Assembly: GCA_016935715.1 (NCBI GenBank)
Contig: JAFGQJ010000112.1
Coordinates: 1-33,737 of the forward strand
DNA from: Spirochaetales bacterium
Lineage (GTDB): Bacteria; Spirochaetota; Spirochaetia; SZUA-6; DRHE01
Reading direction: 5' to 3'
Length of the DNA: 33,737 nt
A program made the position numbers and the translations under genes. Positions 9,747-26,651 of the stretch are shown here, one piece after another. The stretch's first letter is position 1, and the number at the start of each line of letters is the position of its first letter. The notes beneath the pieces were generated by a model. That model was not told the DNA's origin. It searched no databases and was given only the letters and a program-made list of their open reading frames with translations.

Positions 9747-11366
9747 ATGCCGGGAATGATCGTCGCCTCCGAGCCTCTCGCGGTGGAAGAGGGATGGCGG
9801 GTGCTGGTGGAAGGCGGCAACGCGGTGGATGCTGCGGTTACGGCCGCTTTGGTGCAGGGCGTTGTGAATCCGCAGATGTGCGGGATCGGCGGCTATACGC
9901 TCTTGAACCTGTTTGTTCCGGGAAAGGGCGGTCAAGGACTCTCCCAAATCCACGACGCGCCGGCTCTGGCTGGTTCTGCAGTGAGGCCGGACATGTGGGT
10001 CAACGAGGTGATCCGGCCGAATCCCGACGGGTGGGGCTATTTCCTGAAAAACGGCGTCAACACGGTGGGATACACCGCCATCTGTACGCCCGGAGCAGTA
10101 AGAGGGCTGACAGAGATGCTCTCAAACTGGGGAACGATCTCATGGAAGCGTGCTCTGCAACCCGCGATTCGCATCGCCCGCGAGGGCTATATGGTCAGCG
10201 CCGCTGTGGACAACTACTGGAAGGAACGGGCCAGATACCCCGAGGCCTACTCCTTTATCGATATCATCCGCAGCAATGCCGAAGCGAGCCGGATCTACCT
10301 CACGGCCGAGGGAAAGTCTCTCGACAAGGGGGCAGCGCTAAGAAACCCCGACTACGCCGCTACGTTGACCCGGCTGGCAAACGACGGGCCGGAAGATTTC
10401 TACACGGGGAGCCTGGGTGAGATCATCAGCAGGGATCTGGATAAGAATGGCAGCTTTGTCACCATCTCTGACCTGGAAAATTACCAGGCACGTTCGGGCG
10501 ACCCCATAGCGACAACCTACCGCGGCTTCCGTGTGGAAACGGTTCCGCCTCCCCACGGGGGAGCGACCCTGCTCGCCATCCTCAACATCCTGGAGCATTT
10601 TGACCTGCGTTCCATGGGACACAATTCGCCGGATTACATCTACACGATAGCCATGGCCATGAAAGCGGGCTTTGCCGATCGCAATCCCCATCTCGGGGAT
10701 CCGAGCTTCGTGAATGTTCCTCTGGAGTGGATGATCTCCAGCGAAAGAGCTCGATACTGGTACGAAGAGATCCGGAGCGGCGGGCCGATTGAGGTGGTCT
10801 TTGCGCCTTCAGAGCCCCCGGAGACCACCCACCTCAGCGTGGTCGACAGCGGCGGAAACTGCGTCGCCCTGACGCATTCCCTCGGGACTTCCTCCGGCGT
10901 GATTACCCCGGGCCTGGGCTTCATGTACAACAACTCCATGGTCAATTTTCACCCGGTCCCGGGTCACCCCAATTCAATCGCTGCGGGCAAGGGGCGCACC
11001 ACCGGCATGACGCCGACCATCATCTACAGGAAGGATCAGCCCATTCTGGTGATCGGCGCCCCGGGGGCGACCCGGATCATCACCTCTTTGGTCCAGGTGA
11101 TTGTGAATGTGATCGATTTCGGCATGCCTGTAGAGCGGGCGGTGCTCGCTGCCCGCATGGACTGCCAGGGCGACCTCATCCGCTGCCAGGCCCGCATTCC
11201 CGGCCACGTATGCGCTGAAGTCGAGAAGCGCCATCCCGTCCGGCGCATGCCCGAGAGCCACGGGGGGCTCGGCCTGGTGCACGCGATCGCCATCGATCCC
11301 GAGTCTGGGGTTTTGTCCGGGGCAGCCGATTTCGGCAGCGGGGGAATGGCCCTGGAGGTCGAGTAG
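9747..11366 (+). CDS. ggt: Gamma-glutamyltransferase family Ntn-hydrolase, cytoplasmic, with atypical donor site
   Basis: GGNAVDAAV, P-x2-CGIGG, ETTHLSVVD (autoprocessing Thr) and GAPGA. No signal peptide. Confidence 0.88.
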   Translation: MPGMIVASEPLAVEEGWRVLVEGGNAVDAAVTAALVQGVVNPQMCGIGGYTLLNLFVPGKGGQGLSQIHDAPALAGSAVRPDMWVNEVIRPNPDGWGYFLKNGVNTVGYTAICTPGAVRGLTEMLSNWGTISWKRALQPAIRIAREGYMVSAAVDNYWKERARYPEAYSFIDIIRSNAEASRIYLTAEGKSLDKGAALRNPDYAATLTRLANDGPEDFYTGSLGEIISRDLDKNGSFVTISDLENYQARSGDPIATTYRGFRVETVPPPHGGATLLAILNILEHFDLRSMGHNSPDYIYTIAMAMKAGFADRNPHLGDPSFVNVPLEWMISSERARYWYEEIRSGGPIEVVFAPSEPPETTHLSVVDSGGNCVALTHSLGTSSGVITPGLGFMYNNSMVNFHPVPGHPNSIAAGKGRTTGMTPTIIYRKDQPILVIGAPGATRIITSLVQVIVNVIDFGMPVERAVLAARMDCQGDLIRCQARIPGHVCAEVEKRHPVRRMPESHGGLGLVHAIAIDPESGVLSGAADFGSGGMALEVE

Positions 11367-11369
11367 GCT

Positions 11370-11431
11370 TCCCGGCCGCCCTCATGCCGGGAGCGGGGCG
11401 ATCCACCGCCGCGGGGACACGATAGCGGCGG
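11370..11431. terminator. Two GC-rich hairpins between the convergent ggt and nagA-like genes
   Basis: TCCCGGC/GCCGGGA (11370-11392) and CCGCCGC/GCGGCGG (11406-11431). No clear U-tract. Confidence 0.35.
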
Positions 11432-11455
11432 GGGGCTCTGTAGTCGCAGGGGGCT

Positions 11456-12616
11456 CTATGGCCGCCGCGGGTCGCTCGGCTTCCCGGCGACGATTACTTT
11501 CTGCAGCTCCAGGTCCGGGTTCACGATAATGATGTCGGCGTCCATACCGGAGGCTAGGTACCCTTTGCGATCGATGCCCAGCAGACGGGCGGCATTGCCT
11601 GAGCAGAGCATCGAGGCCTGCGGGAGCGAACGACCGTAAACGTTAACGGCGCGAAAGAATCCTTTTTCCAAGGTCAGGGCGCTACCGGACAGCAGGTCGT
11701 CCGACACCCTGCGCACCCCGCGATCCGGGGTCACTTCCAGTTTCCAGCCGGGATACAAGCCGTCGTATATTCCGGGGGAGCTGCCTGCGCCGGGTACGCT
11801 GTCGGTGATGAACACCACCCGCTCCATTCCCTTGCAGCGCAGTGATTTTTCCACCAGCATCGGATAGACGTGGACGCCGTCGGGAATGATTTCCACGGTC
11901 AGCCTGTCCTCGATGTTGATATAGTCGGTGACTCCTTCCGGGTAGACCCCCTCATCGATTTCCTCGGGAATGGGGAACAGGTCGTAGAAATGCGTTACCA
12001 GGCGCATGCCTGCGTCCACGGCCTCACGAATTTGGGGGACATCCGCGAAGCTGTGGGCCATGCTGGTGACGATGCCATTGCGCGCGGCCCAGCGGATGAA
12101 ATCCGTTGCCCCTTCCAGCTCGGGCGAAACGTCCCATATGCGGATCGTCCCTTGGCCGGCTTCGAACAGGGCCTCGGTGTTTTCCGCCGTGATCGGGGCC
12201 AGAGAGTCGGAAGAGCCGGCGCTGGCATCGCTGATGTAGAGGATTTCCGGTCTGAATCCCACCAGATTCGGCGTTCGTTTGAAGTGGTCGGTTTCCTTCA
12301 GTCCTTTTCGGATGACCTCGATGTCTTCCTGCAGTGTGCCGGCCAAGGTAGGAACGCAGGCTGTAATGCCGTGACCGAGCTGCAGGCGTGCAAACTCGGC
12401 CAGGTCCCCGTGATCGACCCGCACCTCGTGCAGCCCGTGGGTGTGGATGTCGATTAAACCGGGCAGCACGTAGCAGCCCTCCGCGTCGATTACCTCTTCC
12501 CCGTATTCACCTTTCAGCTCCGGGCCGATCGAGCGGATCGTCTTTCCCTCGGTCCGTACGTCGCAGCCGATTTCCATCCTGTTTGCATGCAGAACCTTGC
12601 CGTTTTTTATGATCAT
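11456..12616 (-). CDS. NagA-like (N-acetylglucosamine-6-phosphate deacetylase family) amidohydrolase, divergent
   Basis: PGLIDIHTHG, SPE, AHS, VTHF, DGVH, ITDS, LSGS and G-x-DADI motifs; GAGGAGG SD. Confidence 0.88.
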   Translation of the reverse strand: MIIKNGKVLHANRMEIGCDVRTEGKTIRSIGPELKGEYGEEVIDAEGCYVLPGLIDIHTHGLHEVRVDHGDLAEFARLQLGHGITACVPTLAGTLQEDIEVIRKGLKETDHFKRTPNLVGFRPEILYISDASAGSSDSLAPITAENTEALFEAGQGTIRIWDVSPELEGATDFIRWAARNGIVTSMAHSFADVPQIREAVDAGMRLVTHFYDLFPIPEEIDEGVYPEGVTDYINIEDRLTVEIIPDGVHVYPMLVEKSLRCKGMERVVFITDSVPGAGSSPGIYDGLYPGWKLEVTPDRGVRRVSDDLLSGSALTLEKGFFRAVNVYGRSLPQASMLCSGNAARLLGIDRKGYLASGMDADIIIVNPDLELQKVIVAGKPSDPRRP

Positions 12617-12636
12617 GAAGCTCCTCCTCAGCCGAA

Positions 12637-13476
12637 TCAGCCCTTGATGGCTCCAGCGGTTAGTCCCTTGATGAAGTATCGGGACAGGGCTACAAACAGA
12701 ATGATGGGCGGGACCGCGGCGGCCGACAGAATCGCGAACAGCAGGCCGTAGTCCGTTTCGTGCTTACCGAACAGCCGAGCGGTAGCCAGGGGGATGGTCA
12801 TCAACGAATCCTTGTTGATCAGGATCAACGGGAACCAGAAATCATTCCAGACCGGAACCAGATTGTACACCGCTACCACGACGATCGCCGGGCTCAGCAG
12901 GGGAACGATTACGCTGGTGAAGATGCGGGTCTCACCGTAGCCGTCGATCCGCGCCGCGTCACTGAGCTCATCTGGGATCTCCCGTATGAAGCCGGTGAAA
13001 ATCAGGATGCCCGCGGGTATGCCCATGGCCGTGTAGATTATTATCAGTGAAATCAAACTGTTGAACAGGTTGATGGTTATGAAAATCTGCATGATGTTGA
13101 TCGTGCCCAGCCGAATGGGAAGCATCAGACCGATCAGGAAATAGAGAAAAACCGTCTGGTTGCCCCGGAAGCGGTATTTGGCAATCGCGTAGGAGGCTAT
13201 GGAGGTTGCCATAATGGCGAAGAGGATGGCCAAGAATGACACCAGTACGCTGTTGAAGAAATATCGTTCGTAGCTCTGCTGGATGAACAGGCGGGCGTAA
13301 TTGTCCAGGAACAGTGGCTTGGGAAACGCGAAAGGGTTCTTGAAGATGAGGCGGCTGGCCTTCACCGAGGAAACCAGCATCAGCAGTATCGGAAACAGAA
13401 CGACCACGCTCTGGGCCAGTAGCACCAGATACAGCACCGTTCTCAGCGTTTGTCTCCGCACTTGCAGCCAGGTCAT
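12637..13476 (-). CDS. Carbohydrate ABC transporter permease (MalG-type)
   Basis: EAA loop IPDELSDAARIDG, WNDFWFPL and C-terminal GLTAGAIKG. Confidence 0.95.
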   Translation of the reverse strand: MTWLQVRRQTLRTVLYLVLLAQSVVVLFPILLMLVSSVKASRLIFKNPFAFPKPLFLDNYARLFIQQSYERYFFNSVLVSFLAILFAIMATSIASYAIAKYRFRGNQTVFLYFLIGLMLPIRLGTINIMQIFITINLFNSLISLIIIYTAMGIPAGILIFTGFIREIPDELSDAARIDGYGETRIFTSVIVPLLSPAIVVVAVYNLVPVWNDFWFPLILINKDSLMTIPLATARLFGKHETDYGLLFAILSAAAVPPIILFVALSRYFIKGLTAGAIKG

Positions 13477-13497
13477 TCGCTTGTTTCTCCCCGCAGC

Positions 13498-14400
13498 TCA
13501 GCCGCTGCGCCGAAAAATCCTGAGAAACAGAAGGACTCCCGTGAAGATGATGAAGAACATGATCGAGGCCAGCGCAGCCCCCAACCCGACGTCATTCACG
13601 TTGTTCATCACCGTCCCGAACGCCGTACGATAGAAGAACGAACCGAATACGTCGGTGGCGTATTCGGGATTTCCGTAGACCGTCTCCATGGTGTACACGA
13701 TTTCGAACTCGCTGAAATTGCCCACAAAGGTGAGGATCGTCACGATTCCGATAATCGGTTTCAATATGGGAATCAGGATGTGACGCACTTCACCGAGAGC
13801 ACCCAGTCCGTCGATTCTTCCCGCCTCGAGGATATCGGTGTTGATGCTGTCGATTCCCGCCGTGAAAAAGATGATGGGTATGCCGATGTAGTGCCAGGCC
13901 GTGACCACCGCCAGGATCGGCAGTGCCAGCAGCGGGTCGCCGAGCCAAGGCCGGATCAATGCTTCCAAACCGGCGGCGCGCAGGATGCGGTCGAATACGC
14001 CCCAAACTGGATTGAGGATAAGCTTGAAGACGAATCCCACGATAATGACCGATAGAGCCACGGGCACGAAAAAAAGTGTGCGAAAGAAACGCTGTCCCCG
14101 GAACTTGCGGGTCAGCAGCACGGCTAAAAAGAAGCCGAAGGCATTCTGAGTAATGCAGACCATCAGGAAGAACTGGACGTTGTTCCTGAGAACGTTGAAG
14201 AACCGCTCGCGGAAAGGAAACTGCGTAAACAGCTTGACGTAGTTACCGATGCCGACGAATTGGTTCGGCCGTATGCCCGTTCCCGTGTACAAGCTGAATC
14301 GCATCGATTGCAGGATCGGCATGATCATGAATGCCGTGTAGATGCTGAGGGCGGGCAACAGATAGAGCAGCAGGTAGAACCTGATCTTGCGAGATTGCAT
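13498..14400 (-). CDS. Carbohydrate ABC transporter permease (MalF-type)
   Basis: FVGIGNY, FFRTLFFVP, WLGDP and EAA loop ILEAGRIDG. Confidence 0.95.
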   Translation of the reverse strand: MQSRKIRFYLLLYLLPALSIYTAFMIMPILQSMRFSLYTGTGIRPNQFVGIGNYVKLFTQFPFRERFFNVLRNNVQFFLMVCITQNAFGFFLAVLLTRKFRGQRFFRTLFFVPVALSVIIVGFVFKLILNPVWGVFDRILRAAGLEALIRPWLGDPLLALPILAVVTAWHYIGIPIIFFTAGIDSINTDILEAGRIDGLGALGEVRHILIPILKPIIGIVTILTFVGNFSEFEIVYTMETVYGNPEYATDVFGSFFYRTAFGTVMNNVNDVGLGAALASIMFFIIFTGVLLFLRIFRRSG

Positions 14401-14416
14401 GCGATGATTTACCAGC

Positions 14417-14450
14417 CGACGTTCGCCCGGCTGAAGCCGAGCGAACGTCG
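14417..14450 (-). other. Stem-loop between SBP1 and the first permease (mRNA stabiliser or attenuator)
   Basis: CGACGTTCGC-C-CGGC-TGAA-GCCG-A-GCGAACGTCG. On the minus-strand RNA this is a 15-bp stem (one U-G pair) with a UUCA loop. Confidence 0.7.
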
Positions 14451-14464
14451 ACCCTCAGTATGGC

Positions 14465-15745
14465 TCAATAATACCAGGTGTCCAGGCCTTTCTGGACGTG
14501 TGCGGTCGCCTCTTTGGCGCTCCACGTGCCGTTCATGAATTTCTGCATCGCCTCGTTCTCCAGGGTGGCCCCGCTGGGCTCCTGGCGGGAGAGCTTCTCC
14601 CACATGAGCTGCCCGGTGGTATCCACATCCGGCCGCTGGGCGATTTGCACGATTTCCAAGGCCAAAGGATCGGCTATGTCGAACTTGACTTTCAGAGGAG
14701 GGAACATGCCGGGAAGCTCGTTTGCCAAAAGCGAAGCGTGTTCGGGCGTGGCAACCCAGCGCAGGAACTCCACTCCCTCATCCTTGTATTGGGTCGCCTT
14801 GTTGAGGCCCAATCCCAGGTCCGCATAAAAGGCGTACTGCATGCGGTCGCCCTTCTTTTCAACCGGCGGTCCGAACCAGCCAACCTCCAGGCCGGAATCC
14901 CGTATGATGCCTAGCTCCCAGGAGCCGGCTATCCACAGGGCCGCCTGCCCGTTGATGAACATCTGCTGCATAGTCACGTAATCGATAGCCTGATAATTCG
15001 GGGGGAAGAACTCGATCAGCTCCTTCATCTTCTCATAGGCTTTGACAAACAGCGGATCGGTGTATTTGATCTCCTTGTTGATCAGCTTCTGGCGGGTTTT
15101 TTCCCCTCCGTAGAAGTTCGGACCCAGATCGCACAGCAGAGTCTCTGTCAGTACCCACTGCTCATTGGTGCCGTGAGCGAGAACCGTTTCACCGGCGTTC
15201 TTGAGTTTGCGGCTCAGCTGAATAAACTCGTCCCAGGTAACGGGCTCCTGGAGGCCATGCTCGGAGAATATTTCCAGGTTGGTCCATACACCGGTGATCG
15301 AGCCGAAATAGGGTAGCCCGTAGCTCACCCCATCCTCGGTTGCCCAGGTAGCCACGGAATTGGCGGTGAAGTCGGAGCGCAGATTCGGCACCAGGTCGTT
15401 CAACTCGTATATGTAGCCCGCGTCGTAGATCTGACGACCCCCATCGTAGGATCGCAGGATCATGATGTCCGCACCGACACCTGTTTCGAGGGATGTCTTC
15501 AACGCCGTATCGTATTCCGAGTTCTTGATGGGTTCGAACTTGATCTGAATATTAGGATGCTTTTCCATGAAAACCGCATTTATGCGGTTCTCCCGTTCGG
15601 CGTCCTCGGTCCTGAGGCTGGTGTATCTCAGCACCACCTTTTGCGGGCCGGCGGCCTGTTCTTCCCCGCCGCCCCCGGCGAACACGGGGCCCGCAGTCAA
15701 CGCCAGGGCCACTGCGATAATCACTAACACAACGCCATTTTTCAC
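14465..15745 (-). CDS. Carbohydrate ABC transporter solute-binding protein (family 1)
   Basis: Signal peptide MKNGVVLVIIAVALALTAGPVFA-GGGGEE, PVTWDEF, FINGQAALWIAGSW. GTG 15745 follows SD AAGGAGG; the track's start at 15961 is too long. Confidence 0.93.
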   Translation of the reverse strand: MKNGVVLVIIAVALALTAGPVFAGGGGEEQAAGPQKVVLRYTSLRTEDAERENRINAVFMEKHPNIQIKFEPIKNSEYDTALKTSLETGVGADIMILRSYDGGRQIYDAGYIYELNDLVPNLRSDFTANSVATWATEDGVSYGLPYFGSITGVWTNLEIFSEHGLQEPVTWDEFIQLSRKLKNAGETVLAHGTNEQWVLTETLLCDLGPNFYGGEKTRQKLINKEIKYTDPLFVKAYEKMKELIEFFPPNYQAIDYVTMQQMFINGQAALWIAGSWELGIIRDSGLEVGWFGPPVEKKGDRMQYAFYADLGLGLNKATQYKDEGVEFLRWVATPEHASLLANELPGMFPPLKVKFDIADPLALEIVQIAQRPDVDTTGQLMWEKLSRQEPSGATLENEAMQKFMNGTWSAKEATAHVQKGLDTWYY

Positions 15746-15918
15746 TTCGTCCTCCTTGATCCTTGAAGTTTTTGTAGAAACATCTCGATCGGGGTCCCTC
15801 ATCCTTTGAACCGAATGCAGTTGGAGTTTGCCTATTACCTCCTTTCCCGACCTGTCTGCACAACGCTCGATCGCTGGGTTCGATCCAACTGCGAAGCGAC
15901 GCGCGGGCAGATGAATCC

Positions 15919-15946
15919 CTTCTATCAGGTAAAACCCCCTCGTCAA
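15919..15946 (-). promoter_or_regulatory. Possible promoter for the SBP1 operon
   Basis: Minus strand TTGACG-N16 (ending TG-A)-TAGAAG just downstream of the ROK stop; the -10 box is imperfect. Confidence 0.35.
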
Positions 15947-15962
15947 CCAAAGTCCGAACAAC

Positions 15963-17171
15963 CTATGGACAGAAGATCCGGTCCATCGCGATCAGGGCGA
16001 TTCCTAGGGCTGAGCTGTCGACCCCCAGCTTCGAAACTCTGATCTCGATGTCCTCGGCGATACCCATCATCGTGTATTGCTTCAGGGATTCTTTGATGCT
16101 GTCGATCAATATGCTGCCGGCGTTGACCAATCCGCCCCCCAGGATCAACAGCTGCGGATCGAGCAAGTTCACCGCATTCGCCGTGGCGGCCCCTATGTAT
16201 CTCCCTGCTTCCCTCAGCAGGGCAACGGAATACTCGTCGTTCATGCTGGCGGCTATGGCGACATCGTGGGCCGTGACGGTTTCACATTTTCCGTGGGTCA
16301 GCCGCTCGAGCAGTTCGGATCGCTTCTCGGCGATTCCGCTTGCGGCCTGGCGGGCGATTCCTCTGCCGGAGGCCACGGTCTCCAGGCATCCCCGTTTGCC
16401 GCAGGTGCACTCCGTACCGTCGAGCTTGACGACCGAATGACCGATTTCCCCCGCTTTGTAGCCGCTTCCGGTATACAGCTCGCGGTTGAGAAAAAGAGAC
16501 ATCCCGATGCCGTAGCCCAGATCCAGGGTCAAAAAATCTTTGGCCTGCTTGCCTTCCCCCAGCCAACGTTCTGCAAAGCCCGCCGCCCTGGAGCAGTCCT
16601 CCACGTAAACCGGCTTTCCCTGCTCCTGTTCAAAGATCTCCCGTATGCGTACATCCCGCCAACCCGGAATGTTCTCCGCGATCACCGAGATCCCGGTGTC
16701 GGGATTGACGAATCCGGGGACGCACAGCCCGATTGATGGAATTTCAGCGGTGGCGCGTTGCGATTTGATCAGAGTTTGGCAGACTGTCTTCATCTGCTCG
16801 AGGATCAGCTTGACGGGAAGTTGGGGTCTTATTTCGAAATACACCCGGTCCACGACCTCGCCTCTAAGATTGACGAGGATGCCGATTACGTGGGTTGCAC
16901 CGAGATCGATGCCGATGAAATTGCTGTGTGCCCCGTTCAGTCGCAGGATCTCCTGCCTCCGTCCGACCTGCGAGTCCTTGTATCCCGCGCTTTCGATCAA
17001 CAGCTTGTTGGAAAGATCCCGCACTAGTGTCGACACCGTTTTCTTGTCGATATCGAGGGCTTCGGCTATCTCGGTGCGCGTACAGTTGTCCTTCTCCCGT
17101 ACGAAGTTGAGCACCTGGAGCTGTTTGGCATGTACACTGTCCAGGTCCGAAAAATTCTTCGTTTTTCTCAT
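15963..17171 (-). CDS. ROK family transcriptional repressor (NagC/XylR-like)
   Basis: N-terminal HTH (TRTEIAEALDIDKKTVSTLV), IGIDLGAT, GYGIG, AGEIGH and Zn motif CTCGKRGCLE. Confidence 0.95.
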   Translation of the reverse strand: MRKTKNFSDLDSVHAKQLQVLNFVREKDNCTRTEIAEALDIDKKTVSTLVRDLSNKLLIESAGYKDSQVGRRQEILRLNGAHSNFIGIDLGATHVIGILVNLRGEVVDRVYFEIRPQLPVKLILEQMKTVCQTLIKSQRATAEIPSIGLCVPGFVNPDTGISVIAENIPGWRDVRIREIFEQEQGKPVYVEDCSRAAGFAERWLGEGKQAKDFLTLDLGYGIGMSLFLNRELYTGSGYKAGEIGHSVVKLDGTECTCGKRGCLETVASGRGIARQAASGIAEKRSELLERLTHGKCETVTAHDVAIAASMNDEYSVALLREAGRYIGAATANAVNLLDPQLLILGGGLVNAGSILIDSIKESLKQYTMMGIAEDIEIRVSKLGVDSSALGIALIAMDRIFCP

Positions 17172-17183
17172 ATTGTTCCCCGA

Positions 17184-19803: not shown

Positions 19804-20670
19804 TCAGCCCTTCAGGCTGCCGGCGGTCAGGCCGGCAATGAGTTTTCTCTGAAACACGGCGTAGACCACCAGTACTGGCAGGATGCAGATGATGGCGGCG
19901 GCGAACATCGCACCCCAATCCCGGCGCTCTCCGAAGGTATCGTACAGTCCTGACAGGAATTCCACCAACCCAAGGGCCAGCGGTTTCTTGGCCGTATCCC
20001 CGATCAAGGTCAGAGGCAGGATATAGGTGCTCCAAAACTCGAGGAAGTGGAAAACCCCGACGGTGATCAACCCCGGGCGGGCCAGGGGTAGCATAACGAG
20101 GGAAAAGGTCTTGAAGTGGGAACAGCCGTCGATCATGGCCGACTGTTCAAGCTCACGGGGCAGGGTCTTGAAAAAGGCAACCAGCAGGAACACCGCGAAG
20201 GGCATCCCCCAGAATATGTAGGCGATGATCACGCTCAACCGCGTATTGTAGAGATGAAACTCCCGCATCAGGAAGAAGAAGGGGATGACGGTGAGAATCT
20301 GCGGCATCAACAGACCGGCGATGAACAGCTTGTAGAGAAAATCCCGGCCGAAAAACGCGAAGCGGGCGATCACGTAGGCGACCATGGCGCCCAGGCTCAG
20401 GTTTACCAGAACTGCGACGGAGGTGATGATTATGCTGTTCACCATGTACACACCGACGTGTACTTTCTTGAAGGCCACCACGTAGTTCTGCCACTCCAGC
20501 TGGGCTGGGAGGGACCAGATGTTGTGATTGAACTCCATGTTGGTCTTGAAGGTGTTGTAGAACATCCAAACGAATGGTAGCAAAACGATCAGCCCGTATA
20601 GAATGAAAAACAGCCGGAACAGATTGGTAGTAAGAGCTGTCGTTGTTTTTCTACTCAAGTCGAATACCAT
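19804..20670 (-). CDS. Carbohydrate ABC transporter permease (MalG-type), copy 2
   Basis: LPRELEQSAMIDGCS, PLARPGL and AGLTAGSLKG. Confidence 0.95.
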   Translation of the reverse strand: MVFDLSRKTTTALTTNLFRLFFILYGLIVLLPFVWMFYNTFKTNMEFNHNIWSLPAQLEWQNYVVAFKKVHVGVYMVNSIIITSVAVLVNLSLGAMVAYVIARFAFFGRDFLYKLFIAGLLMPQILTVIPFFFLMREFHLYNTRLSVIIAYIFWGMPFAVFLLVAFFKTLPRELEQSAMIDGCSHFKTFSLVMLPLARPGLITVGVFHFLEFWSTYILPLTLIGDTAKKPLALGLVEFLSGLYDTFGERRDWGAMFAAAIICILPVLVVYAVFQRKLIAGLTAGSLKG

Positions 20671-20680
20671 CAGATGTGAT

Positions 20681-21532
20681 CTATCCTTTCAGGCTGCCCG
20701 CCGTCAGGCCGGCCACCAGCTTTCTTTGAAAAACCGTGTAGATCAGGAGAATGGGGAGAATGCAGATGATGCAGGCTGCGAACATGGCTCCCCAATCCTG
20801 TCGGATCCCGACTCCGGAGGAGAACTCGACAAGGCCTAGGGATACCGGTTTCCGCGCTTCGTCGGCGATCAGGGTCAGGGGCAGGATATAGGCGCTCCAG
20901 AACTCGAGAAAATTAAAAACCGAAACCGTTATCAATCCCGGGCGGGCCAGGGGCAGCATGATCAGGGTAAAGGTCTTCCAGTAGGAACAGCCGTCGATCA
21001 TGGCCGCCTGCTCCAGCTCCTGGGGCAATGTCTTGAAGAAGGCGACCAGGAGGAAAGTTGCGAAGGGCATCCCCCAAAACGTGTAGGCTATGATCACACT
21101 GGCCCGGGTGTTGAACAGGCTCATCTCTCTCATGAGGAAAAAGTAGGGAATCACCGTAAGAATCCGCGGCATCAACAGACCCGCCAGGATGAGCTTGTAG
21201 ATGAAATCGCGGCCCCAGAATTTGAAGCGGGAAATCACGTAGGATAGCGCAGCGCTCAATCCGACGTTCAGCAGAACGGCGATGCAGGTGATGATCACGC
21301 TGTTGATCATGTACACGCCGATATTCGCTTTGTCGAACGCAAGCCGGTAGTTCTCCCATCTCAACTGGCTGGGCAGGGACCAGATGTTGAGGTTGAACTC
21401 CATGTTCGACTTGAAGGTGTTGTAGAGCAGCCAGACGAAGGGCAGCAGGACCACGATCCCGTATATGATGAAGATCAATCGGAACAAATTGGTGACCAGA
21501 AACTTCAGGGTGTTGCTTCGTATGCGTTGCAT
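20681..21532 (-). CDS. Carbohydrate ABC transporter permease (MalG-type), copy 1
   Basis: LPQELEQAAMIDGCS, PLARPGL and AGLTAGSLKG. Confidence 0.95.
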   Translation of the reverse strand: MQRIRSNTLKFLVTNLFRLIFIIYGIVVLLPFVWLLYNTFKSNMEFNLNIWSLPSQLRWENYRLAFDKANIGVYMINSVIITCIAVLLNVGLSAALSYVISRFKFWGRDFIYKLILAGLLMPRILTVIPYFFLMREMSLFNTRASVIIAYTFWGMPFATFLLVAFFKTLPQELEQAAMIDGCSYWKTFTLIMLPLARPGLITVSVFNFLEFWSAYILPLTLIADEARKPVSLGLVEFSSGVGIRQDWGAMFAACIICILPILLIYTVFQRKLVAGLTAGSLKG

Positions 21533-21553
21533 CGCTTATTACACCTCGGTTGC

Positions 21554-22456
21554 TCAGTACTGGATGACTTCCCTTTTTGTTGTCCGGAGCAAGATCAGCG
21601 CCAGAATCAGGGTTATTACCAGGATCATCACCCCGATCGTCGTGCCGTAGCCGAACTTGGAAAAAGTGAAGGCGTTCTCGTACATATAGGTCACCAGCAC
21701 CTCCGAAGCCCGGTCCGGCCCACCGTGGGTCGTCATGAAGATGATGGCGAAGGAAGCGGCAAAGGAGGAGATGATGAAGAACACCAGGGCGGTGCGCACG
21801 ACTTCCCAGATCAGGGGCAGGGTGATTTTGATCGTCTGCTGCCAGGTTCCGGCACCGTCGATTACCGCGGATTCATAGAGCTCCGCCGGAATGTTCTGGA
21901 TGGCGGCGATCATGAGCACCATGTAGAACCCCAGTACTTTCCAGACCAGGAAGGTAATGAGCGATGGCTTCACCAGGTGTTTGTTGGAGAACCACAGCTG
22001 CTTCAGGCTTCCCAAGCGGATCGCATCGAGAAAGGTGTTGAGGATTCCGTTGGTCGGCGCGTAGACGCTCATGGCGATGATGCCGACCACGACCATTGGA
22101 ACGGCTGCCGGAAAGAAAAATATGGTTCGGTAGATGTTTCGCTCCGGCAGAACGTTTCTCGACAGGATCACGGCGAAGAAGATGGAAAATACGAACAGCA
22201 ACACGGAGGTGAAGAAGAAGATGTAGAGATTGTTGTACAGAGACTTCAAGAAATTGCGGTCCTGGAACAGATCGACGAAGTTCTTGAAGCCCACGAAGCT
22301 CATGTTCATGGAGATTCCCCGCCAGCGGAACAGGCTCATGTACAGTCCGCGGATGCAGGGAAAAATATAGAACAGGATATACAGGGCGATGATGGGAACC
22401 ACGATCGAAATAATGAAGATATTACGTTCTCGCTTTGTAGTTGTTAATTTGACCAT
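21554..22456 (-). CDS. Carbohydrate ABC transporter permease (MalF-type)
   Basis: FVGFKNF, YRTIFFFP, IPAELYESAVIDGA and THGGP. Confidence 0.95.
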   Translation of the reverse strand: MVKLTTTKRERNIFIISIVVPIIALYILFYIFPCIRGLYMSLFRWRGISMNMSFVGFKNFVDLFQDRNFLKSLYNNLYIFFFTSVLLFVFSIFFAVILSRNVLPERNIYRTIFFFPAAVPMVVVGIIAMSVYAPTNGILNTFLDAIRLGSLKQLWFSNKHLVKPSLITFLVWKVLGFYMVLMIAAIQNIPAELYESAVIDGAGTWQQTIKITLPLIWEVVRTALVFFIISSFAASFAIIFMTTHGGPDRASEVLVTYMYENAFTFSKFGYGTTIGVMILVITLILALILLRTTKREVIQY

Positions 22457-22489
22457 GCGTATATCCTACCATTGTGATTTGCGGGCGAT

Positions 22490-22520
22490 AATACGGCCGG
22501 GCTTTAGACCCGGCCGTATT
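22490..22520 (-). other. Perfect 12-bp stem-loop between SBP2 and its permease (mRNA stabiliser or partial terminator)
   Basis: AATACGGCCGGG-CTTTAGA-CCCGGCCGTATT. Confidence 0.75.
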
Positions 22521-22544
22521 GAATGCTATGGAAGCCGTGCTCGA

Positions 22545-23861
22545 TTACTCGAAGGTGTACTTCGGAATCGTATCGTCATCGATGACCGCTTTTGTGGCCT
22601 CGGTCATCCGCTTCATGAAATCGCTCGGCTCCTGATCACCGGATACCAGAGCATTGATCGCGTTGCCCGCTTCTTTGGGCAGGGTTTTGTACCAGGCACT
22701 CCACATGCTCACCATCGATGGATTGGTGTTCAGGGCGGCCACGGCGCTGGTTACGGCATCTGGAAGAAGGTGACCGAAGTCGTCGGCGAAGCCTTTGATG
22801 GGCATGATGAACTTGTTCGCCTCGATGTTCTTCCTGATGGTCTCTTTATCGTTGAGCAGGTACTGGTAGTACTCGATGACCAGCGCCTGGTTTCGCACCG
22901 GTTTGGGCACCGAACCCCTGAGCAGAATCGACCAAACATAATTATCCCCCGAAGCTGTTTTCTTTCCCGGGGTGGGGAAGAAGGTGAGGCCGAAATCCGC
23001 CGGCCAGCTGTCCCCCATCTCCGCGTACAGCCAGGAGCCGCAGGGGTACATGCCGATGTTGTACTTGAGGAACTCCTGCTGGACCTCGATCTTCGCGGTG
23101 AGCGAGGGCGGCCAGATGTAGCCCTTGTCCCGCATTGAGGCAAACCTTTCCATCGCTTCCTTTACCGCCCCAGATTTCCAGGCATCCGGCTCCAGGTTCT
23201 GAATATCCACGTAGGCCTGGTGGCTCAAGCTGTTGATCATGGGGAAGAGGAAGTAGTTCAGAGGATATTCATGAGCGAAATCGCCCATATAGGCAAACGC
23301 CTCGATACCGTTCTGTTCGAATTTGGCCGCGGCGGCCATGAATTCATTCCAGGTCTCCGGTACAGTCACCCCCAGATCGTCCACCAGCTTCTGGCTGTAC
23401 CACATGCCCCCCAGATAGGAGACTTCCGGAATGAGATAGTGCTTTCCATCCACGTAGCCGCTGCTGTCCATGTCGGGCTTGTAGAAGACGTCTCGCATCT
23501 TCCCCTTGCCGTCGAGGGTTGGGGCATCGTAGATGAAATCGATGGGGGCGAGAAGACCTTCGGTAATGGCCCCGTAGTAGTCGAACAATCCCTGGTTCAC
23601 GTGGGCAACGTCCGGCGGCTCCCCCGCCATGATTTTGTTGCGGAGAATGTCCTGAGCTTTGTGGCTGTACTCCAGAGAGATGTCGACGTCCGGATGGTTC
23701 TGCTTCAGCATGTCAACCGCGGCGTTGGCCATCTCTCCCATGCCGCCAACGAAGTACAGGACCTCGAATTTCCCCGGAGCCGCACCCTCCTGCGCTCCAC
23801 CGGAGAAGGCGAACGGGCAGGTCAACAGCAGGACTAATCCGAGTAACAATAGTTTTCTCAT
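22545..23861 (-). CDS. Carbohydrate ABC solute-binding protein, resembling the NgcE (GlcNAc/chitobiose-binding) type
   Basis: Signal peptide MRKLLLLGLVLLLTCPFAFSGGAQE, EVLYFVGGMG, AGEPPD, PETWNEF and CGSWLYAEM. ATG 23861 follows AAGGAGG. The NgcE resemblance comes from remembered motifs only. Confidence 0.88.
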   Translation of the reverse strand: MRKLLLLGLVLLLTCPFAFSGGAQEGAAPGKFEVLYFVGGMGEMANAAVDMLKQNHPDVDISLEYSHKAQDILRNKIMAGEPPDVAHVNQGLFDYYGAITEGLLAPIDFIYDAPTLDGKGKMRDVFYKPDMDSSGYVDGKHYLIPEVSYLGGMWYSQKLVDDLGVTVPETWNEFMAAAAKFEQNGIEAFAYMGDFAHEYPLNYFLFPMINSLSHQAYVDIQNLEPDAWKSGAVKEAMERFASMRDKGYIWPPSLTAKIEVQQEFLKYNIGMYPCGSWLYAEMGDSWPADFGLTFFPTPGKKTASGDNYVWSILLRGSVPKPVRNQALVIEYYQYLLNDKETIRKNIEANKFIMPIKGFADDFGHLLPDAVTSAVAALNTNPSMVSMWSAWYKTLPKEAGNAINALVSGDQEPSDFMKRMTEATKAVIDDDTIPKYTFE

Positions 23862-23898
23862 CTGTCCCTCCTTAATATGAAGAATAGTATTGGATGTA

Positions 23899-23927
23899 AT
23901 TTTACCGTATACATAGCGCTTTGTCAA
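23899..23927 (-). promoter_or_regulatory. Near-consensus sigma70 promoter of the SBP2 ABC operon
   Basis: Minus strand TTGACA (23927-23922)-N17-TAAAAT (23904-23899). Confidence 0.8.
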
Positions 23928-24087
23928 GATTCAATTCGGAGGTAGATTTCCGTTTTGGAGATTAGGTCGTCTTTGTTACGCAAATTTCCATTAGAAAGCT
24001 AATTATGGGAAAATTGACCTCTAATGACCTATATAGTGGGTGTCCTGCACAATTAGTACCAATTTCTCTTCGTGACGGGCACCTATA

Positions 24088-24115
24088 TTGACAAACCGGG
24101 ATATGTGGCTACAAT
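24088..24115 (+). promoter_or_regulatory. sigma70 promoter of the second NagA-like/ceramidase operon
   Basis: TTGACA (24088-24093)-N16-TACAAT (24110-24115). Confidence 0.75.
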
Positions 24116-24138
24116 TACTCCAGGTCGAGGTGACAACG

Positions 24139-25377
24139 GTGAGTGCACGGAAGCTGGATGGTTCGTTGGTGCTACGAAATGCGAACGTTCTGCTCGGCAG
24201 CGGTGAGTTCCGGGAGTGCGACGTCCGCATCGACGGCCCGGTCATTTCAGCAATCGGTGAGGGACTGGGCGGCGGCGAAGAGCGGGACGTGGGCGGTTGC
24301 TACGTCTTGCCTGGTTTGATCGATCTGCATACCCACGGAATCGGCTACCAGGCGGTGGAGGTCTGTGATTTGTCCGCCTATGCCGAGATGGAGGCCGCCC
24401 GGGGTGCTACTTCGGTCGTGCCCACGATGTTCGCGCCGCTCGACGAAATCCTGCGCCAATTGAAACGTCATCGAGCCGAGACGGCGGAGCTGTCGCGGCT
24501 CAAGCAGGTCCGCGGTTTCCGCCTGGAGTCTCCCTACGTGGCGAACACCGGAGCCGGGAGGCGGCAGGACCTGGAGCCGATATCCCGGGAAACCACCGAT
24601 GCGATTCTCGAGGCCGGGGGTGGTCATATCCGGATCTGGGACATCTCCCCCGAGCTTCCACGGGCCCCCGAGGAGATTCGCTATCTCACCGGCAAGGGCA
24701 TCGTCTGCAGCATCGCCCACACCAAGGCGACGATCGAGCAGAGCCGGGCCGCCGTGGATGCCGGCGCCGCCTTGGTGACCCACCTCTTCGACGTGTTCGA
24801 ATTGCCCGAACAGACCGAAAGCGGCGTGATCCCGGCCGGCCTGGTGGATTACCTGCTGACCGAGGATCGGGTGGTCTGCGAGATCATCCCGGACGGAACC
24901 CACGTTTCCCCGATACTCGTGGAAGAGGCATGGCGCTGCAAGAGCCCGGAGCGCATAGCGATGGTCACGGATTCGAACCTGGGCGCGGGTCTCCCTCCCG
25001 GAAGGTATACCCTGGCCAGAGGCCTGGGAGAGGTGATTATCCGGGATGTGAACGACGGGGTGCGCCTGGTCGACCGGGGAATGGGCCTGGCCGGAAGCGC
25101 GCTCACCCCTTTGGACGGCCTGCGGAACCTGGTGCGGCTTTTCGGGAAAAGCCTGGAGCTGGCCAGTCGGGTCTGTTCGCGCACTCCGGCCCGGCTGCTC
25201 GGCCTCAATGCCGGGGAGATCGCCGAAGGACGGGATGCGGACCTGATCGTACTGGATGAACAGCTGCACCTCCTGCTCACCATCACGCGGGGGGCCGTTG
25301 TATTCCGGGCCGAGTCGCTGAAATCTACACAAACGGAGGTATTAGCATGTTTGCCGGAACAGGGAAAATCGACATAA
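24139..25377 (+). CDS. Second NagA-like amidohydrolase, divergent
   Basis: PGLIDLHTHG, SPE, AHT, VTHLFD, DGTH, VTDS, LAGS and GRDADL. GTG 24139 follows GAGG; the track's TTG 24088 is the -35 box. Confidence 0.88.
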   Translation: MSARKLDGSLVLRNANVLLGSGEFRECDVRIDGPVISAIGEGLGGGEERDVGGCYVLPGLIDLHTHGIGYQAVEVCDLSAYAEMEAARGATSVVPTMFAPLDEILRQLKRHRAETAELSRLKQVRGFRLESPYVANTGAGRRQDLEPISRETTDAILEAGGGHIRIWDISPELPRAPEEIRYLTGKGIVCSIAHTKATIEQSRAAVDAGAALVTHLFDVFELPEQTESGVIPAGLVDYLLTEDRVVCEIIPDGTHVSPILVEEAWRCKSPERIAMVTDSNLGAGLPPGRYTLARGLGEVIIRDVNDGVRLVDRGMGLAGSALTPLDGLRNLVRLFGKSLELASRVCSRTPARLLGLNAGEIAEGRDADLIVLDEQLHLLLTITRGAVVFRAESLKSTQTEVLACLPEQGKST

Positions 25378-26651
25378 CGCCCCGGGGCAGCGTCTGGATG
25401 GACGGGATGATTCGCGCCCATCGATCGACGGGGATCCACGATCCCCTCCACGCCCGGGCCCTCTACCTGGCAGCGGATGAGAATCCCCGAAACGCCTTCG
25501 TCCTGGTTGCCATGGACGTCGTGGGCCTGAACGCGGAGGACGGGATGGTGGTGCGCCGGAGCGTGGAGAAAAGCACCGGGATCCCCTGGGATCACATCAT
25601 CCTGGCCGCCTCCCATACGCACTCCGGACCGGCCACGATTGGAGCCTTCAACCCGAAGGAAACGAAGTACGTGGGGGAACTGCAAAAGAAGCTCGTAACG
25701 GTCATCGGGCGGGCTGCGGGCGGCGCGGTTCGGGCCGCCGCCGGCAGCGGCTCCGGAAAGGAAGACACAATCAGTCACTACCGGCGGTTTCTCACGAAGG
25801 ACGGCCGGGTCGTGATGATCTGGGAGCCCTGTCCCGCGGAAGATATCGTCGGACCCCTGGGGGAGATCGACCCGGAGCTCGGCGTGCTCAAGGTGACCGG
25901 GAGCGAGGGGAGCAGCGACGGCAACCTCTGCATCGCCTTCAACCACGCGGGTCATCCCAACGTCCTGTCGGGGGAGAACTACCTGATCAGCGGCGATTAT
26001 GCCGGTCTGGCGGCGCAGCTCGTGGAGGAGAGGTTCGGCTGCACCTCCATGTTCTTAAACGGTGCCCAGGGCACCATGGACGTGGACGGTTTTAAGGACC
26101 GGGACTGGGAAGGACGGGATCGGATCGGAAGGACCCTGGCCGATGCGGTCGGCTCGGTGGCGGCCGATCTGCCGACCTCCCCTTCCGTGCATCTGCGGGG
26201 AGGGTCGGTACGCTACACGATCCCCTCGAGGAAAATCAGCGAAGAGGAGTATCGCTGGGCCGAGAAGATACTGGAGCAGACCGGGGGAAAGATCCAGCCC
26301 CTGGCCGACGGGATAGGGGATGACTACCTGGCCGTACTGTTCAAGCGCCTGCGGGGCAGGGAGCAGGAGGAAAACCCGGCCGAGCAGGTCTGTGTGGCAC
26401 TGGATGACAGCGCTTTTCTCAGCTTCCCCGGCGAGCTGTTCACGGAGATCGGGATGGAGATCAAACAGGCCAGCCCCTTCAAGCACACCTACATCGTCGA
26501 CCTGGCCAACGGGACGATCGGCTACGTTCCCAGCAGAAAGGCCATCGGCGAAGGGGGATACGCGGTGGTGACGCGGAAGCTCGACCACAGCGCCGCGGAT
26601 CTGGTCAAGGAGCACAGCCTGGCCCTGCTGCGCGAGGTGTTCGACCGCTGA
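25347..26651 (+). CDS. Neutral/alkaline ceramidase-like amidase
   Basis: DITP, HDPLHARAL, SHTHSGP (Zn ligands), AGHP, ISGDYAG, PGELFTEIG and GYVP; GGAGGT SD; no signal peptide. Confidence 0.85.
   Translation: MFAGTGKIDITPRGSVWMDGMIRAHRSTGIHDPLHARALYLAADENPRNAFVLVAMDVVGLNAEDGMVVRRSVEKSTGIPWDHIILAASHTHSGPATIGAFNPKETKYVGELQKKLVTVIGRAAGGAVRAAAGSGSGKEDTISHYRRFLTKDGRVVMIWEPCPAEDIVGPLGEIDPELGVLKVTGSEGSSDGNLCIAFNHAGHPNVLSGENYLISGDYAGLAAQLVEERFGCTSMFLNGAQGTMDVDGFKDRDWEGRDRIGRTLADAVGSVAADLPTSPSVHLRGGSVRYTIPSRKISEEEYRWAEKILEQTGGKIQPLADGIGDDYLAVLFKRLRGREQEENPAEQVCVALDDSAFLSFPGELFTEIGMEIKQASPFKHTYIVDLANGTIGYVPSRKAIGEGGYAVVTRKLDHSAADLVKEHSLALLREVFDR

Follow-up and report, generated by a model that had tools for sequence, protein, structure and literature searches.

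A candidate phosphorylation-independent gene cluster for catabolism of imported N-acylated amino sugars in a spirochaete metagenome-assembled genome

In soils and sediments, much organic nitrogen is bound in the amino sugars of cell walls, capsules, and lipopolysaccharides, of which only a few have a known degradation route. The 33,737-nucleotide contig JAFGQJ010000112.1 of the Spirochaetales bacterium assembly GCA_016935715.1 raises the question of what a DegT-family aminotransferase and a Zn-dependent dehydrogenase do beside two NagA-like deacetylases, a ceramidase-like amidase, two sugar-type ATP-binding cassette (ABC) importers, and a ROK-family regulator. The assembly is a metagenome-assembled genome of 3.29 Mb in 426 contigs (91% complete), and the entire contig, referred to here as the window, is its contig C81.

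On balance, we favor a catabolic role for the cluster in the window, which would process an N-acylated amino sugar-like compound after import and without phosphorylation. In the proposed pathway, two binding-protein-dependent importers would take up the substrate, probably an N-acetylhexosamine-containing mono- or oligosaccharide, and its amino group or groups would be freed by NagA-like enzymes lacking the 6-phosphate clamp together with a cytoplasmic Zn amidase of ceramidase fold. The DegT aminotransferase would then move the freed amino group onto a keto acid, giving a keto sugar, and the Zn-dependent dehydrogenase would reduce the keto group to yield a neutral sugar or polyol for ordinary pathways, with the ROK protein acting as a local repressor. 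We infer that an amine becomes a ketone and then an alcohol, and we also infer the sequence of steps and the class of substrate.

Pfam scans covered 32 open reading frames (ORFs) spanning the window, two of which are probably spurious antisense frames, and NCBIfam scans covered 20 ORFs. The gene content listed in an earlier, sequence-only reading of positions 9747–26651 was confirmed by Pfam or NCBIfam for every gene, with importer 2 having three permeases. The genes central to the proposal are the following.

11456–12616, − strand: NagA-like deacetylase 1, a carbohydrate esterase family 9 (CE9)-type amidohydrolase without phosphate clamp (TIGR00221, 151.4 bits)
12637–13476 and 13498–14400, − strand: importer 1 permeases, MalG/UgpE-like and MalF/UgpA-like (BPD_transp_1, E = 1.3e-12 and 1.6e-11)
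14465–15961, − strand: solute-binding protein 1, CUT1 type, start probably 15802 or 15745 (SBP_bac_1, E = 5e-39)
15963–17171, − strand: ROK-family regulator, winged helix-turn-helix plus ROK domain (ROK, E = 2e-58 at residues 86–397; MarR_2, E = 1.7e-6 at residues 16–60)
17377–18705, + strand: DegT/DnrJ/EryC1/StrS pyridoxal-phosphate (PLP) aminotransferase, 442 residues, Fic25-like long form (PF01041, E = 4e-92, 309.6 bits, cut-off 19.8)
18718–19740, + strand: Zn-dependent medium-chain dehydrogenase/reductase (MDR), polyol/threonine-dehydrogenase subgroup (ADH_N, ADH_zinc_N)
19804–20670 and 20681–21532 (both MalG-like) and 21554–22456 (MalF-like), − strand: importer 2 permeases (BPD_transp_1)
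22545–23927, − strand: solute-binding lipoprotein 2, NgcE-like, real start ATG 23861 (TIGR03851 chitin_NgcE, 203.7 bits, cut-off 399.65)
24088–25377, + strand: NagA-like deacetylase 2, start probably 24130–24169 (TIGR00221, 172.3 bits)
25347–26651, + strand: ceramidase-like Zn amidase, predicted neutral-ceramidase fold in a short form of 434 residues, predicted cytoplasmic (PF04734 over the N-terminal part, E = 1e-11)

No kinase, NagB/SIS, glycosyltransferase, or nucleotidyltransferase family was matched among the 32 window ORFs, as the sequence-only reading had stated, and Pfam placed no acyltransferase or carrier protein among the window ORFs.

Predicted de-N-acylases

Both NagA-like proteins score below the TIGR00221 cut-off (225.65 bits), are 44% identical to each other, and align over their full length to Mycobacterium smegmatis NagA (6fv3; E = 8e-29 for NagA-like 1 and 2e-38 for NagA-like 2). 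Both keep the residues for metal binding and catalysis (HxH, Glu, His, His, and Asp), as seen against 6fv3 and in a 16-sequence alignment. At the 6-phosphate sites, Asn212 is replaced by Asp in both proteins, and Arg219/Arg220 by Glu/Gly in NagA-like 1 and by Gln/Thr in NagA-like 2. According to the accessible text on M. smegmatis NagA, Asn212, Arg219, and the invariant Arg220 contact the 6-phosphate, the Arg pair being supplied by the partner subunit (PMC6016474), and every characterised CE9 enzyme is described as holding the phosphate with a conserved Arg in the accessible part of PMC12017989. Asp in place of Asn212 occurs in 10 of 12 module-linked NagA-like proteins, namely the window's two and 8 of 10 orthologs from related loci (numbered L009 and so on; the proteins of L114 and L129 keep Asn), and in 0 of 4 other NagA-family proteins of the same genome; a canonical NagA on contig C398 of this genome retains both the Asn and the His-Arg. 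The replacement of the phosphate-contacting Asn/Arg residues in both window proteins supports the earlier suggestion that the substrate is non-phosphorylated.

Elsewhere in the genome, two genes exceed the TIGR00221 cut-off (306.2 and 251.7 bits), and each has a NagB-family match, itself below cut-off, within about 2 kb. Given these canonical NagA genes, the window copies are, by sequence comparison, extra, divergent paralogs. A 63% identical ortholog of NagA-like 1 adjoins the ROK gene in L014, and orthologs of NagA-like 2 (54–67% identity) lie directly upstream of the ceramidase-like gene in metagenome loci. We also considered the cluster as the organism's plain N-acetylglucosamine (GlcNAc) pathway and rejected this, since canonical NagA genes with NagB-family neighbors lie on other contigs.

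Pfam covers only the N-terminal part of the ceramidase-like protein, and PF04734 is described as yielding many partial matches in the accessible text of PMC4443539. A profile built from 36 homologs matched Pseudomonas aeruginosa neutral ceramidase (2zws) in two stretches with E = 3.4e-21. H90, H92, H203, E363, and Y393 are invariant in the 36 sequences and align with 2zws H97, H99, H204, E411, and Y448, which we take to be its zinc site. The AlphaFold model (pLDDT 93.7) places neutral ceramidases at Foldseek ranks 1–4 (E ~1e-26; TM-score normalised to the query, TMq, 0.70–0.75), with TM below 0.2 beyond rank 4, and on this model the protein is predicted to have the neutral-ceramidase catalytic fold. 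Its alignment ends near residue 489 of 646 in 2zws, leaving it without the C-terminal domain, and its N-terminus opens directly on the conserved core with no signal peptide, indicating a cytoplasmic location. Its family is a large one, with 814 members at E ≤ 1e-10 out of 8000 candidates scored, and bears no annotation beyond "ceramidase N-terminal domain-containing"; the module is widespread in sediment and freshwater metagenomes. Four longer relatives were found at E ≤ 1e-20, one of which (P0126) is fused to an Amidohydro_2 domain; none of these four is fused to DegT, NagA, or dehydrogenase.

Neutral ceramidases (2zws/2zxc and human 4wgk) share the catalytic-domain fold and the five aligned residues with the window protein, but they are 646–688 residues long against 434, are only 14–19% identical, and alone carry the C-terminal domain and signal peptide. 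The gene studied here sits in sugar-type operons, and no lipid-related neighbor was seen. The possibility that it encodes a true ceramidase or N-acyl amino-alcohol amidase, within a module degrading sphingoid-type 2-amino-1,3-diols by deacylation, transamination to a dihydroxy-ketone, and reduction, would explain why neutral ceramidases are its only structural relatives. It would also suit two features of its partners described below: Fic25, the closest solved relative of DegT, interconverts a dihydroxy-ketone and a 2-amino-1,3-diol, and the dehydrogenase belongs to the polyol/ketose-reductase subgroup. We nevertheless judge it very unlikely, because the protein has no C-terminal domain and is predicted to stay in the cytoplasm, NagA-like sugar deacetylases accompany it, and the transport genes beside the module encode sugar-type ABC, SusC/SusD, and sodium-solute symporter systems, not lipid carriers.

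The module, as we read it, differs from each of the closest known systems in a defining respect. With the NagA/NagB route for GlcNAc it shares the amidohydrolase fold, the metal and catalytic residues, an NgcE-like importer, and a NagC-like regulator; it differs in its sub-cut-off NagA scores, in the replaced phosphate Asn/Arg, in having no kinase or NagB in the cluster, and in the proposed removal of the amino group by a PLP aminotransferase where the NagA/NagB route uses a deaminase/isomerase. The oxidative chitin (Ong) pathway likewise involves cytoplasmic deacetylation of a non-phosphorylated N-acetyl amino sugar derivative, but its deacetylase OngB is D-aminoacylase-like and the accessible text describes no DegT step (PMC12017989). 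The same text counts five CE families plus OngB as the known carbohydrate de-N-acetylases, none of ceramidase fold.

The aminotransferase, the dehydrogenase, and substrate uptake

The longest ORF for DegT spans 17302–18705, with the real start at ATG 17377 behind a GGAGG sequence. The active-site lysine is present in a Ser-x-x-x-x-Lys...GEGG stretch. DegT falls below the cut-off of all NCBIfam nucleoside diphosphate (NDP)-sugar models, including PseC, WecE, ArnB, LegC, and DesI, the best being PseC with 223.5 against 423.5 bits, and a protein-atlas look-up returned generic DegT clusters only. Its best solved relative is 8gyh (E = 4.8e-85), which aligns over residues 4–422 and through the C-terminal domain; the next is 7b0d (E = 3e-65), and the alignments of the NDP-sugar and inosose aminotransferases stop at about residue 310. 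8gyh and 8GYJ are sister entries with the same sequence, and in the accessible text 8GYJ is Fic25, an enzyme that makes the 6-amino compound from a carrier-bound amino-dihydroxy-6-oxoheptanoate (PMC11726168). The Fic25 substrate is thus a non-nucleotide ketone with a hydroxylated carbon on either side. Fic25, from ficellomycin formation, is the best full-length solved relative of DegT and acts on a non-nucleotide keto-diol, but it is biosynthetic and its substrate rides on an amino-group carrier protein, for which no gene fits the gaps in the ORF layout of the cluster.

Characterised DegT chemistry takes place at ring positions C3 and C4, at terminal carbons, and on cyclitols. This favors 3- or 4-amino or diamino sugars, and our best guess for the substrate is therefore an N-acylated 3- or 4-amino or diamino sugar of microbial envelopes, followed by plain N-acetylhexosamines.

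The dehydrogenase keeps, invariant in 13 orthologs, the catalytic Zn ligands C34, H56, E57, and E138, the structural cysteines C86, C89, C92, and C100, and the GxGxxG glycines G162, G164, and G167. Among solved structures it comes closest to L-threonine 3-dehydrogenase (2dfv, E = 1e-38); sorbitol dehydrogenases and a ketose reductase rank next. The stretch following the second dinucleotide-fold strand lacks an acidic residue and has an invariant Arg close by, a pattern that, as a rule of thumb, would hint at NADP(H) and hence at a reductive role.

The uptake genes bear on the substrate. Binding protein 1 carries a hydrophobic leader (signal peptide) in its translation, and its solved relatives include the sugar-binding lipoprotein 3vxb (E = 2.4e-21) and the chitin-oligosaccharide binder NagB2 (7eho, E = 1.2e-18); the best NCBIfam names for the importer 1 permeases are sugar ABC permeases. 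The gene for binding protein 2 starts at ATG 23861 behind a ribosome-binding site, and its product has a lipobox-like leader. Of the solved structures, the nearest is 9h0n (E = 3.9e-20), an entry reportedly cited in a preprint about uptake of fucosylated lacto-N-biose blocks, and chitin-oligosaccharide binders come next; an 87% identical ortholog lies beside NagA-like 2 and the ceramidase-like gene in L051. By sequence, then, both binding proteins resemble GlcNAc-oligosaccharide binders, the hints being weaker for binding protein 1. The two MalG-like permeases of importer 2 are tandem duplicates (73% identical), and three permeases are unusual for CUT1. No ABC ATPase was found among the 32 window ORFs, the rest of the genome not having been searched for one; CUT1 importers usually share an ATPase encoded elsewhere. 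The ROK protein has MarR_2/HTH_24 matches at residues 16–60 and a Cys-rich motif (CxCGxxGCxE), and it stays below the cut-offs of both the NagC model (162.9 bits) and the Mlc equivalog. From the winged helix-turn-helix domain and the NagC-like best match, we read it as a regulator and not a kinase.

The same enzymes might serve an N-acylated aminocyclitol (an inosamine, 2-deoxystreptamine, or an aminoglycoside fragment), with DegT and the Zn-dehydrogenase running 2-deoxystreptamine-type steps backwards. The biosynthesis of 2-deoxystreptamine pairs a DegT-type aminotransferase with a Zn-MDR dehydrogenase, solved L-glutamine:(2-deoxy-)scyllo-inosose aminotransferases are among the better matches of DegT (7b0d, E = 3e-65; 5w71, 1.9e-60; 2c7t, 4.3e-60), the dehydrogenase matches scyllo-inosose 3-dehydrogenase IolM best among the NCBIfam models (153.3 bits, cut-off 450), and scattered iol-like genes (a thiamine pyrophosphate enzyme, AP_endonuc_2, PfkB, and a class-II aldolase) occur in some related loci. 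However, IolD and IolE stay below cut-off in this 91%-complete genome (best 239.5/715 and 31.7/290 bits; the search did not extend to the Thermotoga-type variant), the binding proteins and ROK protein resemble N-acetylhexosamine-oligosaccharide types, and NagA-like enzymes are sugar deacetylases. The sediment and freshwater spread of the module would also fit a common envelope sugar better than rare aminocyclitols, and we consider an aminocyclitol substrate quite unlikely.

DegT and dehydrogenase genes stand side by side in biosynthetic systems as well. The 2-deoxystreptamine (NeoA/BtrS), WbpB/WbpE, NtdC/NtdA, and KdnB/KdnA pairs are all of this kind and convert among alcohol, ketone, and amine; WbpE, NtdA, the Kdo8N transaminase, and inosose aminotransferases are among the PDB matches of DegT. 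These pairs build amino compounds and sit with synthases or with nucleotidyl- or glycosyltransferases, whereas the pair studied here sits with deacylases, importers, and repressors, and its dehydrogenase is an MDR of the polyol/threonine-dehydrogenase type. A biosynthetic or salvage module, in which an imported sugar is oxidised and aminated for an envelope or secondary metabolite, would accord with the usual biosynthetic order of dehydrogenase, then DegT, and with nearly all characterised DegT-family enzymes in the PDB list being biosynthetic. Of all the alternatives we give this one the least credence: genes for a nucleotidyltransferase, a glycosyltransferase, an acyltransferase, or a carrier protein are missing from the window, two or three deacylases would make no sense in that direction, the neighbors are importers and catabolic-type repressors, and a glycosyltransferase gene was found in only 1 of the 24 related loci that we annotated (L129, on the opposite strand).

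Conservation of the core genes in other genomes

Linkage of the genes was assessed from two anchors. DegT as query in a genome collection gave 41 loci, 15 of which carry a DegT of 56–79% identity, and the ceramidase-like protein as query gave 137 confirmed metagenome stretches, the best 80 of which were examined. The tblastn tallies required at least 40–50% query coverage and miss fragments at contig ends; the related loci are not phylogenetically independent, and ORF calling in them is heuristic.

Of the 15 DegT-anchored loci, 13 have room for a following gene, and 11 of these have the dehydrogenase immediately behind DegT (L012 and L016 lack it; the sequences of L014 and L020 are cut). Seven of the 15 contain a ceramidase-like gene within 10 kb, six a NagA-like gene, and three, all from spirochaetes, a ROK gene (L011, L013, and L014; orthologs of 54–57% identity). 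By record title, the seven loci with a ceramidase-like gene come from Spirochaetota, Chloroflexota, Brocadiaceae, and a planctomycete, and a ceramidase-like gene also follows the more distant DegT (41–43% identity) of the Bacteroidota-type loci L027, L029, and L030. In the ceramidase-anchored set, 59 loci have room of 700 bp or more, and 35 of these have a co-oriented DegT no further than 400 bp downstream (38 if any downstream distance is allowed). DegT is in turn followed by the dehydrogenase in 19 of 23 loci, and the gene directly upstream of the ceramidase-like gene is NagA-like in 18 of 52 loci and encodes a GntR/UTRA regulator in 9 of 52. The association of the core genes is far above chance, and the conserved unit is (NagA-like)–ceramidase-like–DegT–dehydrogenase, with variable importers and regulator type. 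The co-occurrence anticipated by the sequence-only reading therefore held in part: DegT, Zn-dehydrogenase, NagA-like, and ceramidase-like genes recur together across several phyla and ROK recurs in spirochaete loci (3/15), but the importers and the type of regulator vary.

A second DegT–dehydrogenase pair, 72% and 66% identical to the first, lies on contig C100 of the same genome (L009:245-4741), with a gene for a DUF4432 protein behind it and one for a sugar-binding protein upstream in the opposite orientation. L010 holds a similar DegT–dehydrogenase–DUF4432 type cluster plus a URO-D-like gene and a short-chain dehydrogenase/reductase (SDR) gene, and the DegT found in same-genus genomes is of the C100 type and not the window's.

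Several observations weigh against the proposed pathway. The DegT-family enzymes in the PDB match list, among those characterised, are nearly all biosynthetic, and since the family is mostly of this kind and its reaction reversible, the catabolic direction is taken solely from context; the nearest solved relative of the dehydrogenase is a threonine dehydrogenase. The cluster has one aminotransferase for three amidases, and the window has no glycoside hydrolase despite its oligosaccharide-type binding proteins. No shared ROK operator emerged, as the two divergent promoter regions have no common word longer than 8 bases, and the importer-2 operon splits DegT–dehydrogenase from NagA-like 2–ceramidase-like. 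The nearest relatives also differ: identities to L011, the locus with the closest DegT, are 79% for DegT and 72% for the dehydrogenase, with 32% for NagA-like 2 and 38% for the ceramidase-like protein, and the latter two are 78% and 81% identical to their counterparts in L051, so that the window cluster is a mosaic. Elsewhere, no DegT adjoins the ceramidase-like gene in 24 of the 59 ceramidase-anchored loci with room, and some related loci carry peptidases, hydantoinase, or amino-acid-type genes.

Such observations could mean that there is no single pathway, only chitobiose/GlcNAc uptake operons lying beside an unrelated DegT/dehydrogenase pair and hydrolases. The five units on alternating strands, the mosaic relatives, the lack of a common operator, the lower GC content at 12–24 kb, and importers and regulators that are not conserved with the enzymes would all be expected under mere juxtaposition. 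The four enzyme genes are, however, neighbors in dozens of loci from different phyla (35/59, 19/23, and 18/52, as above), and L011 holds DegT, dehydrogenase, NagA-like, ceramidase-like, and ROK genes in one run. We regard juxtaposition as having little probability, comparable to that of an aminocyclitol substrate.

The surroundings of the module speak to its role. In 24 related loci annotated by heuristic ORF calling and Pfam, a CUT1 ABC importer lies beside the module in L009, L010, and L011, a ribose-type ABC importer in L014, and Opp-type ones in L104 and L114, with non-ABC transport by an SSF symporter in L062 and a major facilitator superfamily protein in L071. The adjoining regulators are of the ROK, GntR/UTRA (L019, L021, L022, L062, and L080), LacI (L104 and L114), AraC (L071, L072, and L074), and DeoR (L027) types. 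In L030, from Fodinibius roseus DSM 21986 (NZ_FQUS01000038.1), the DegT and ceramidase-like genes lie inside a SusC/SusD locus with an anti-sigma factor. Importers and repressors beside the module elsewhere, including this SusC/SusD locus, argue for catabolism of an imported sugar-like compound and support the catabolic role first suggested from the window. L030 also carries two Amidohydro_2 genes and a BNR_4 protein gene, and its cultured organism is a possible experimental handle.

Recurrent enzymes in the 24 loci are GFO/IDH/MocA proteins (12 loci), SDR (8), URO-D-like (6) and Amidohydro_2 proteins (6), class-III aminotransferases (5), HpcH/HpaI aldolases (5), DHDPS-family lyases (5), and Ldh_2 (4); nucleotidyltransferase genes were found in 0 of 24. 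The pathway seems to continue, in many organisms, into sugar-acid or deoxy-sugar-type steps. This raises the alternative that the substrate is an amino-sugar acid, such as 2-acetamido-2-deoxy-gluconate from oxidative chitin cleavage or a 5,7-diacetamido nonulosonic acid, which would be deacylated, transaminated to a 2-keto or other keto acid, and then reduced or cleaved by an aldolase. The Amidohydro_2 family includes sugar lactonases, so that these proteins may be counted with HpcH/HpaI, DHDPS, Ldh_2, SDR, and GFO/IDH/MocA as sugar-acid enzymes; BNR sialidase-like genes occur in L018 and L030; and L-threonine 3-dehydrogenase, nearest to the dehydrogenase, acts on an alpha-amino-beta-hydroxy acid. 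GlcNAc1A catabolism is known and opens with a non-phosphorylated deacetylase, but according to the accessible text this enzyme, OngB, is of the D-aminoacylase branch and belongs to neither the NagA nor the ceramidase family (PMC12017989). In addition, Asp at the phosphate-binding Asn site would disfavor an anionic group, and no close orthologs of the L011 class-III aminotransferase and DHDPS-family lyase (aldolase) were found in the window's own genome (best 31% and 25% identity). An amino-sugar acid is hence unlikely, if less so than the other alternatives. In the window's genome, what the four core enzymes make probably enters general sugar metabolism directly.

Extending the catabolic reading beyond this genome is more tentative. 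It is possible that the module represents a widespread kinase- and NagB-free amino-sugar route, with two new kinds of de-N-acylase and a catabolic DegT plus polyol-type Zn reductase, that would let uncultured Planctomycetota, Verrucomicrobiota, Chloroflexota, Spirochaetota, and related groups feed on the N-acylated (di)amino sugars of microbial envelopes. A full-text literature search, with most subscription journals outside its coverage, found no prior description of the module. If the proposal is true, DegT-family enzymes, known almost only from biosynthesis, would gain a catabolic role, a ceramidase-fold enzyme and phosphate-independent NagA relatives would join the short list of carbohydrate de-N-acylases, and a family annotated only by its ceramidase N-terminal domain would be given a function. 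The enzymes could serve in making or editing amino sugars, and a compact module of three or four genes lends itself to direct testing in vitro.

Transcription units and flanking genes

The window is organized in five transcription units on alternating strands.

Unit a, + strand: V-type ATPase operon, then Usp, phosphotransferase system (PTS) EIIA-2 protein, and gamma-glutamyltransferase (GGT)
Unit b, 17171 down to 11456, − strand: ROK regulator, binding protein 1, two permeases, NagA-like 1
Unit c, 17377 to 19740, + strand: DegT, Zn-MDR dehydrogenase
Unit d, 23861 down to 19804, − strand: binding lipoprotein 2, three permeases
Unit e, + strand: NagA-like 2, ceramidase-like, molybdopterin oxidoreductase, Amidohydro_2, two URO-D-like, PNP_UDP_1, last ORF

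The three best promoter-like sites of the region 9000–28900, each with 11 of 12 consensus positions, coincide exactly with the 5′ ends of units c, d, and e.

17286–17313, + strand: sigma-70-like promoter before DegT, TTGACT-16-TATAAT, 11/12
23899–23927, − strand: sigma-70-like promoter of the importer-2 operon, TTGACA-17-TAAAAT, 11/12
24088–24115, + strand: sigma-70-like promoter of the NagA-like 2/ceramidase-like operon, TTGACA-16-TACAAT, 11/12
17201–17217, ROK/DegT intergenic region: inverted repeat GGAAA-N7-TTTCC, exact match, a candidate operator only

The TTG starts of the longest ORFs for binding protein 2 (23927) and NagA-like 2 (24088) are the TTGACA −35 boxes of two back-to-back promoters, so the automatic ORF starts at these positions are too long. 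The inverted repeat is not enriched (2 matches against 1.01 expected) and is missing from the second divergent region.

GC content is 0.53–0.57 at positions 12001–24000 and 0.60–0.66 in both flanks, and no ceramidase-like ortholog was found in nine same-genus genomes searched (best 26–30% identity). Together with the differing nearest relatives of its genes, this suggests that the cluster was assembled by gene transfer.

The flanking genes, some of them possible members of the cluster, are listed below.

9747–11366, + strand: GGT (TIGR00066, 361.2 bits against a cut-off of 357.85)
26667–28769, + strand: cytoplasmic molybdopterin (DMSO-reductase family) oxidoreductase (Molybdopterin, Molydop_binding, Fe4S4), membership uncertain
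28807–29862, + strand: Amidohydro_2-family protein, possible member (PF04909, E = 1e-18)
29843–31045 and 31057–32043, + strand: two URO-D-like proteins, possible members (PF01208, E = 1.6e-6 and 1.5e-11)

The sequence-only reading had ended the cluster at 26651, which is probably too short, since the operon continues through the molybdopterin oxidoreductase, Amidohydro_2, and the two URO-D-like genes. The molybdoenzyme gene follows the ceramidase-like gene by 16 bp in the same orientation, and no Tat leader region was aligned in its product; a 75% identical ortholog follows the ceramidase-like gene in L051 (3542-5635) and was not seen in the other related loci. The Amidohydro_2 protein of the window is about 26% identical, and the URO-D-like proteins 24–27% identical, to their counterparts in related loci. 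Orthology with those copies was considered and set aside, as identities of 24–27% indicate recurrence of the families only. Among solved structures, no relative of the Amidohydro_2 protein or the second URO-D-like protein was found by sequence at E ≤ 0.01. The ORF at 32837–33736, the last of the window, runs off the contig end and has no family match, with nothing usable in Pfam even at E ≤ 0.5.

Amidohydro_2 is fused to a class-III aminotransferase beside the module in the Brocadiaceae-type loci L018 (14586-17033), L023 (14186-16540), and L024 (12402-15587). Natural fusions were also noted at L060 (1861-4146) and in P0126, the latter joining ceramidase-like and Amidohydro_2 domains. By their sequences, these fusions would link the Amidohydro_2, class-III aminotransferase, and ceramidase-like families functionally.

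Proteins of about 155 residues, paired or single, are encoded beside DHDPS-family lyase genes in L062 (17747-18678), L018 (4808-5730), L024 (3283-4184), L021 (18221-19134), L022 (15349-15816), and L080 (15311-15778). Neither these nor the proteins of about 320–490 residues without assignment beside the module gave anything usable in Pfam at E ≤ 0.5.

On the left side, GGT is unrelated to the module, although it had been counted as a member: it is present in 0 of 121 related loci (41 DegT-anchored and 80 ceramidase-anchored) and lies on the + strand, the strand opposite to unit b, behind Usp and EIIA genes with 16-bp gaps and the V-ATPase operon further upstream. The GGT protein has no signal peptide, keeps the Thr-Thr-His processing site, and barely passes the TIGR00066 cut-off. 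The left third of the window (472–8774) is a complete V/A-type ATPase operon with subunits C, I, K, F, E, A, B, and D assigned by Pfam.

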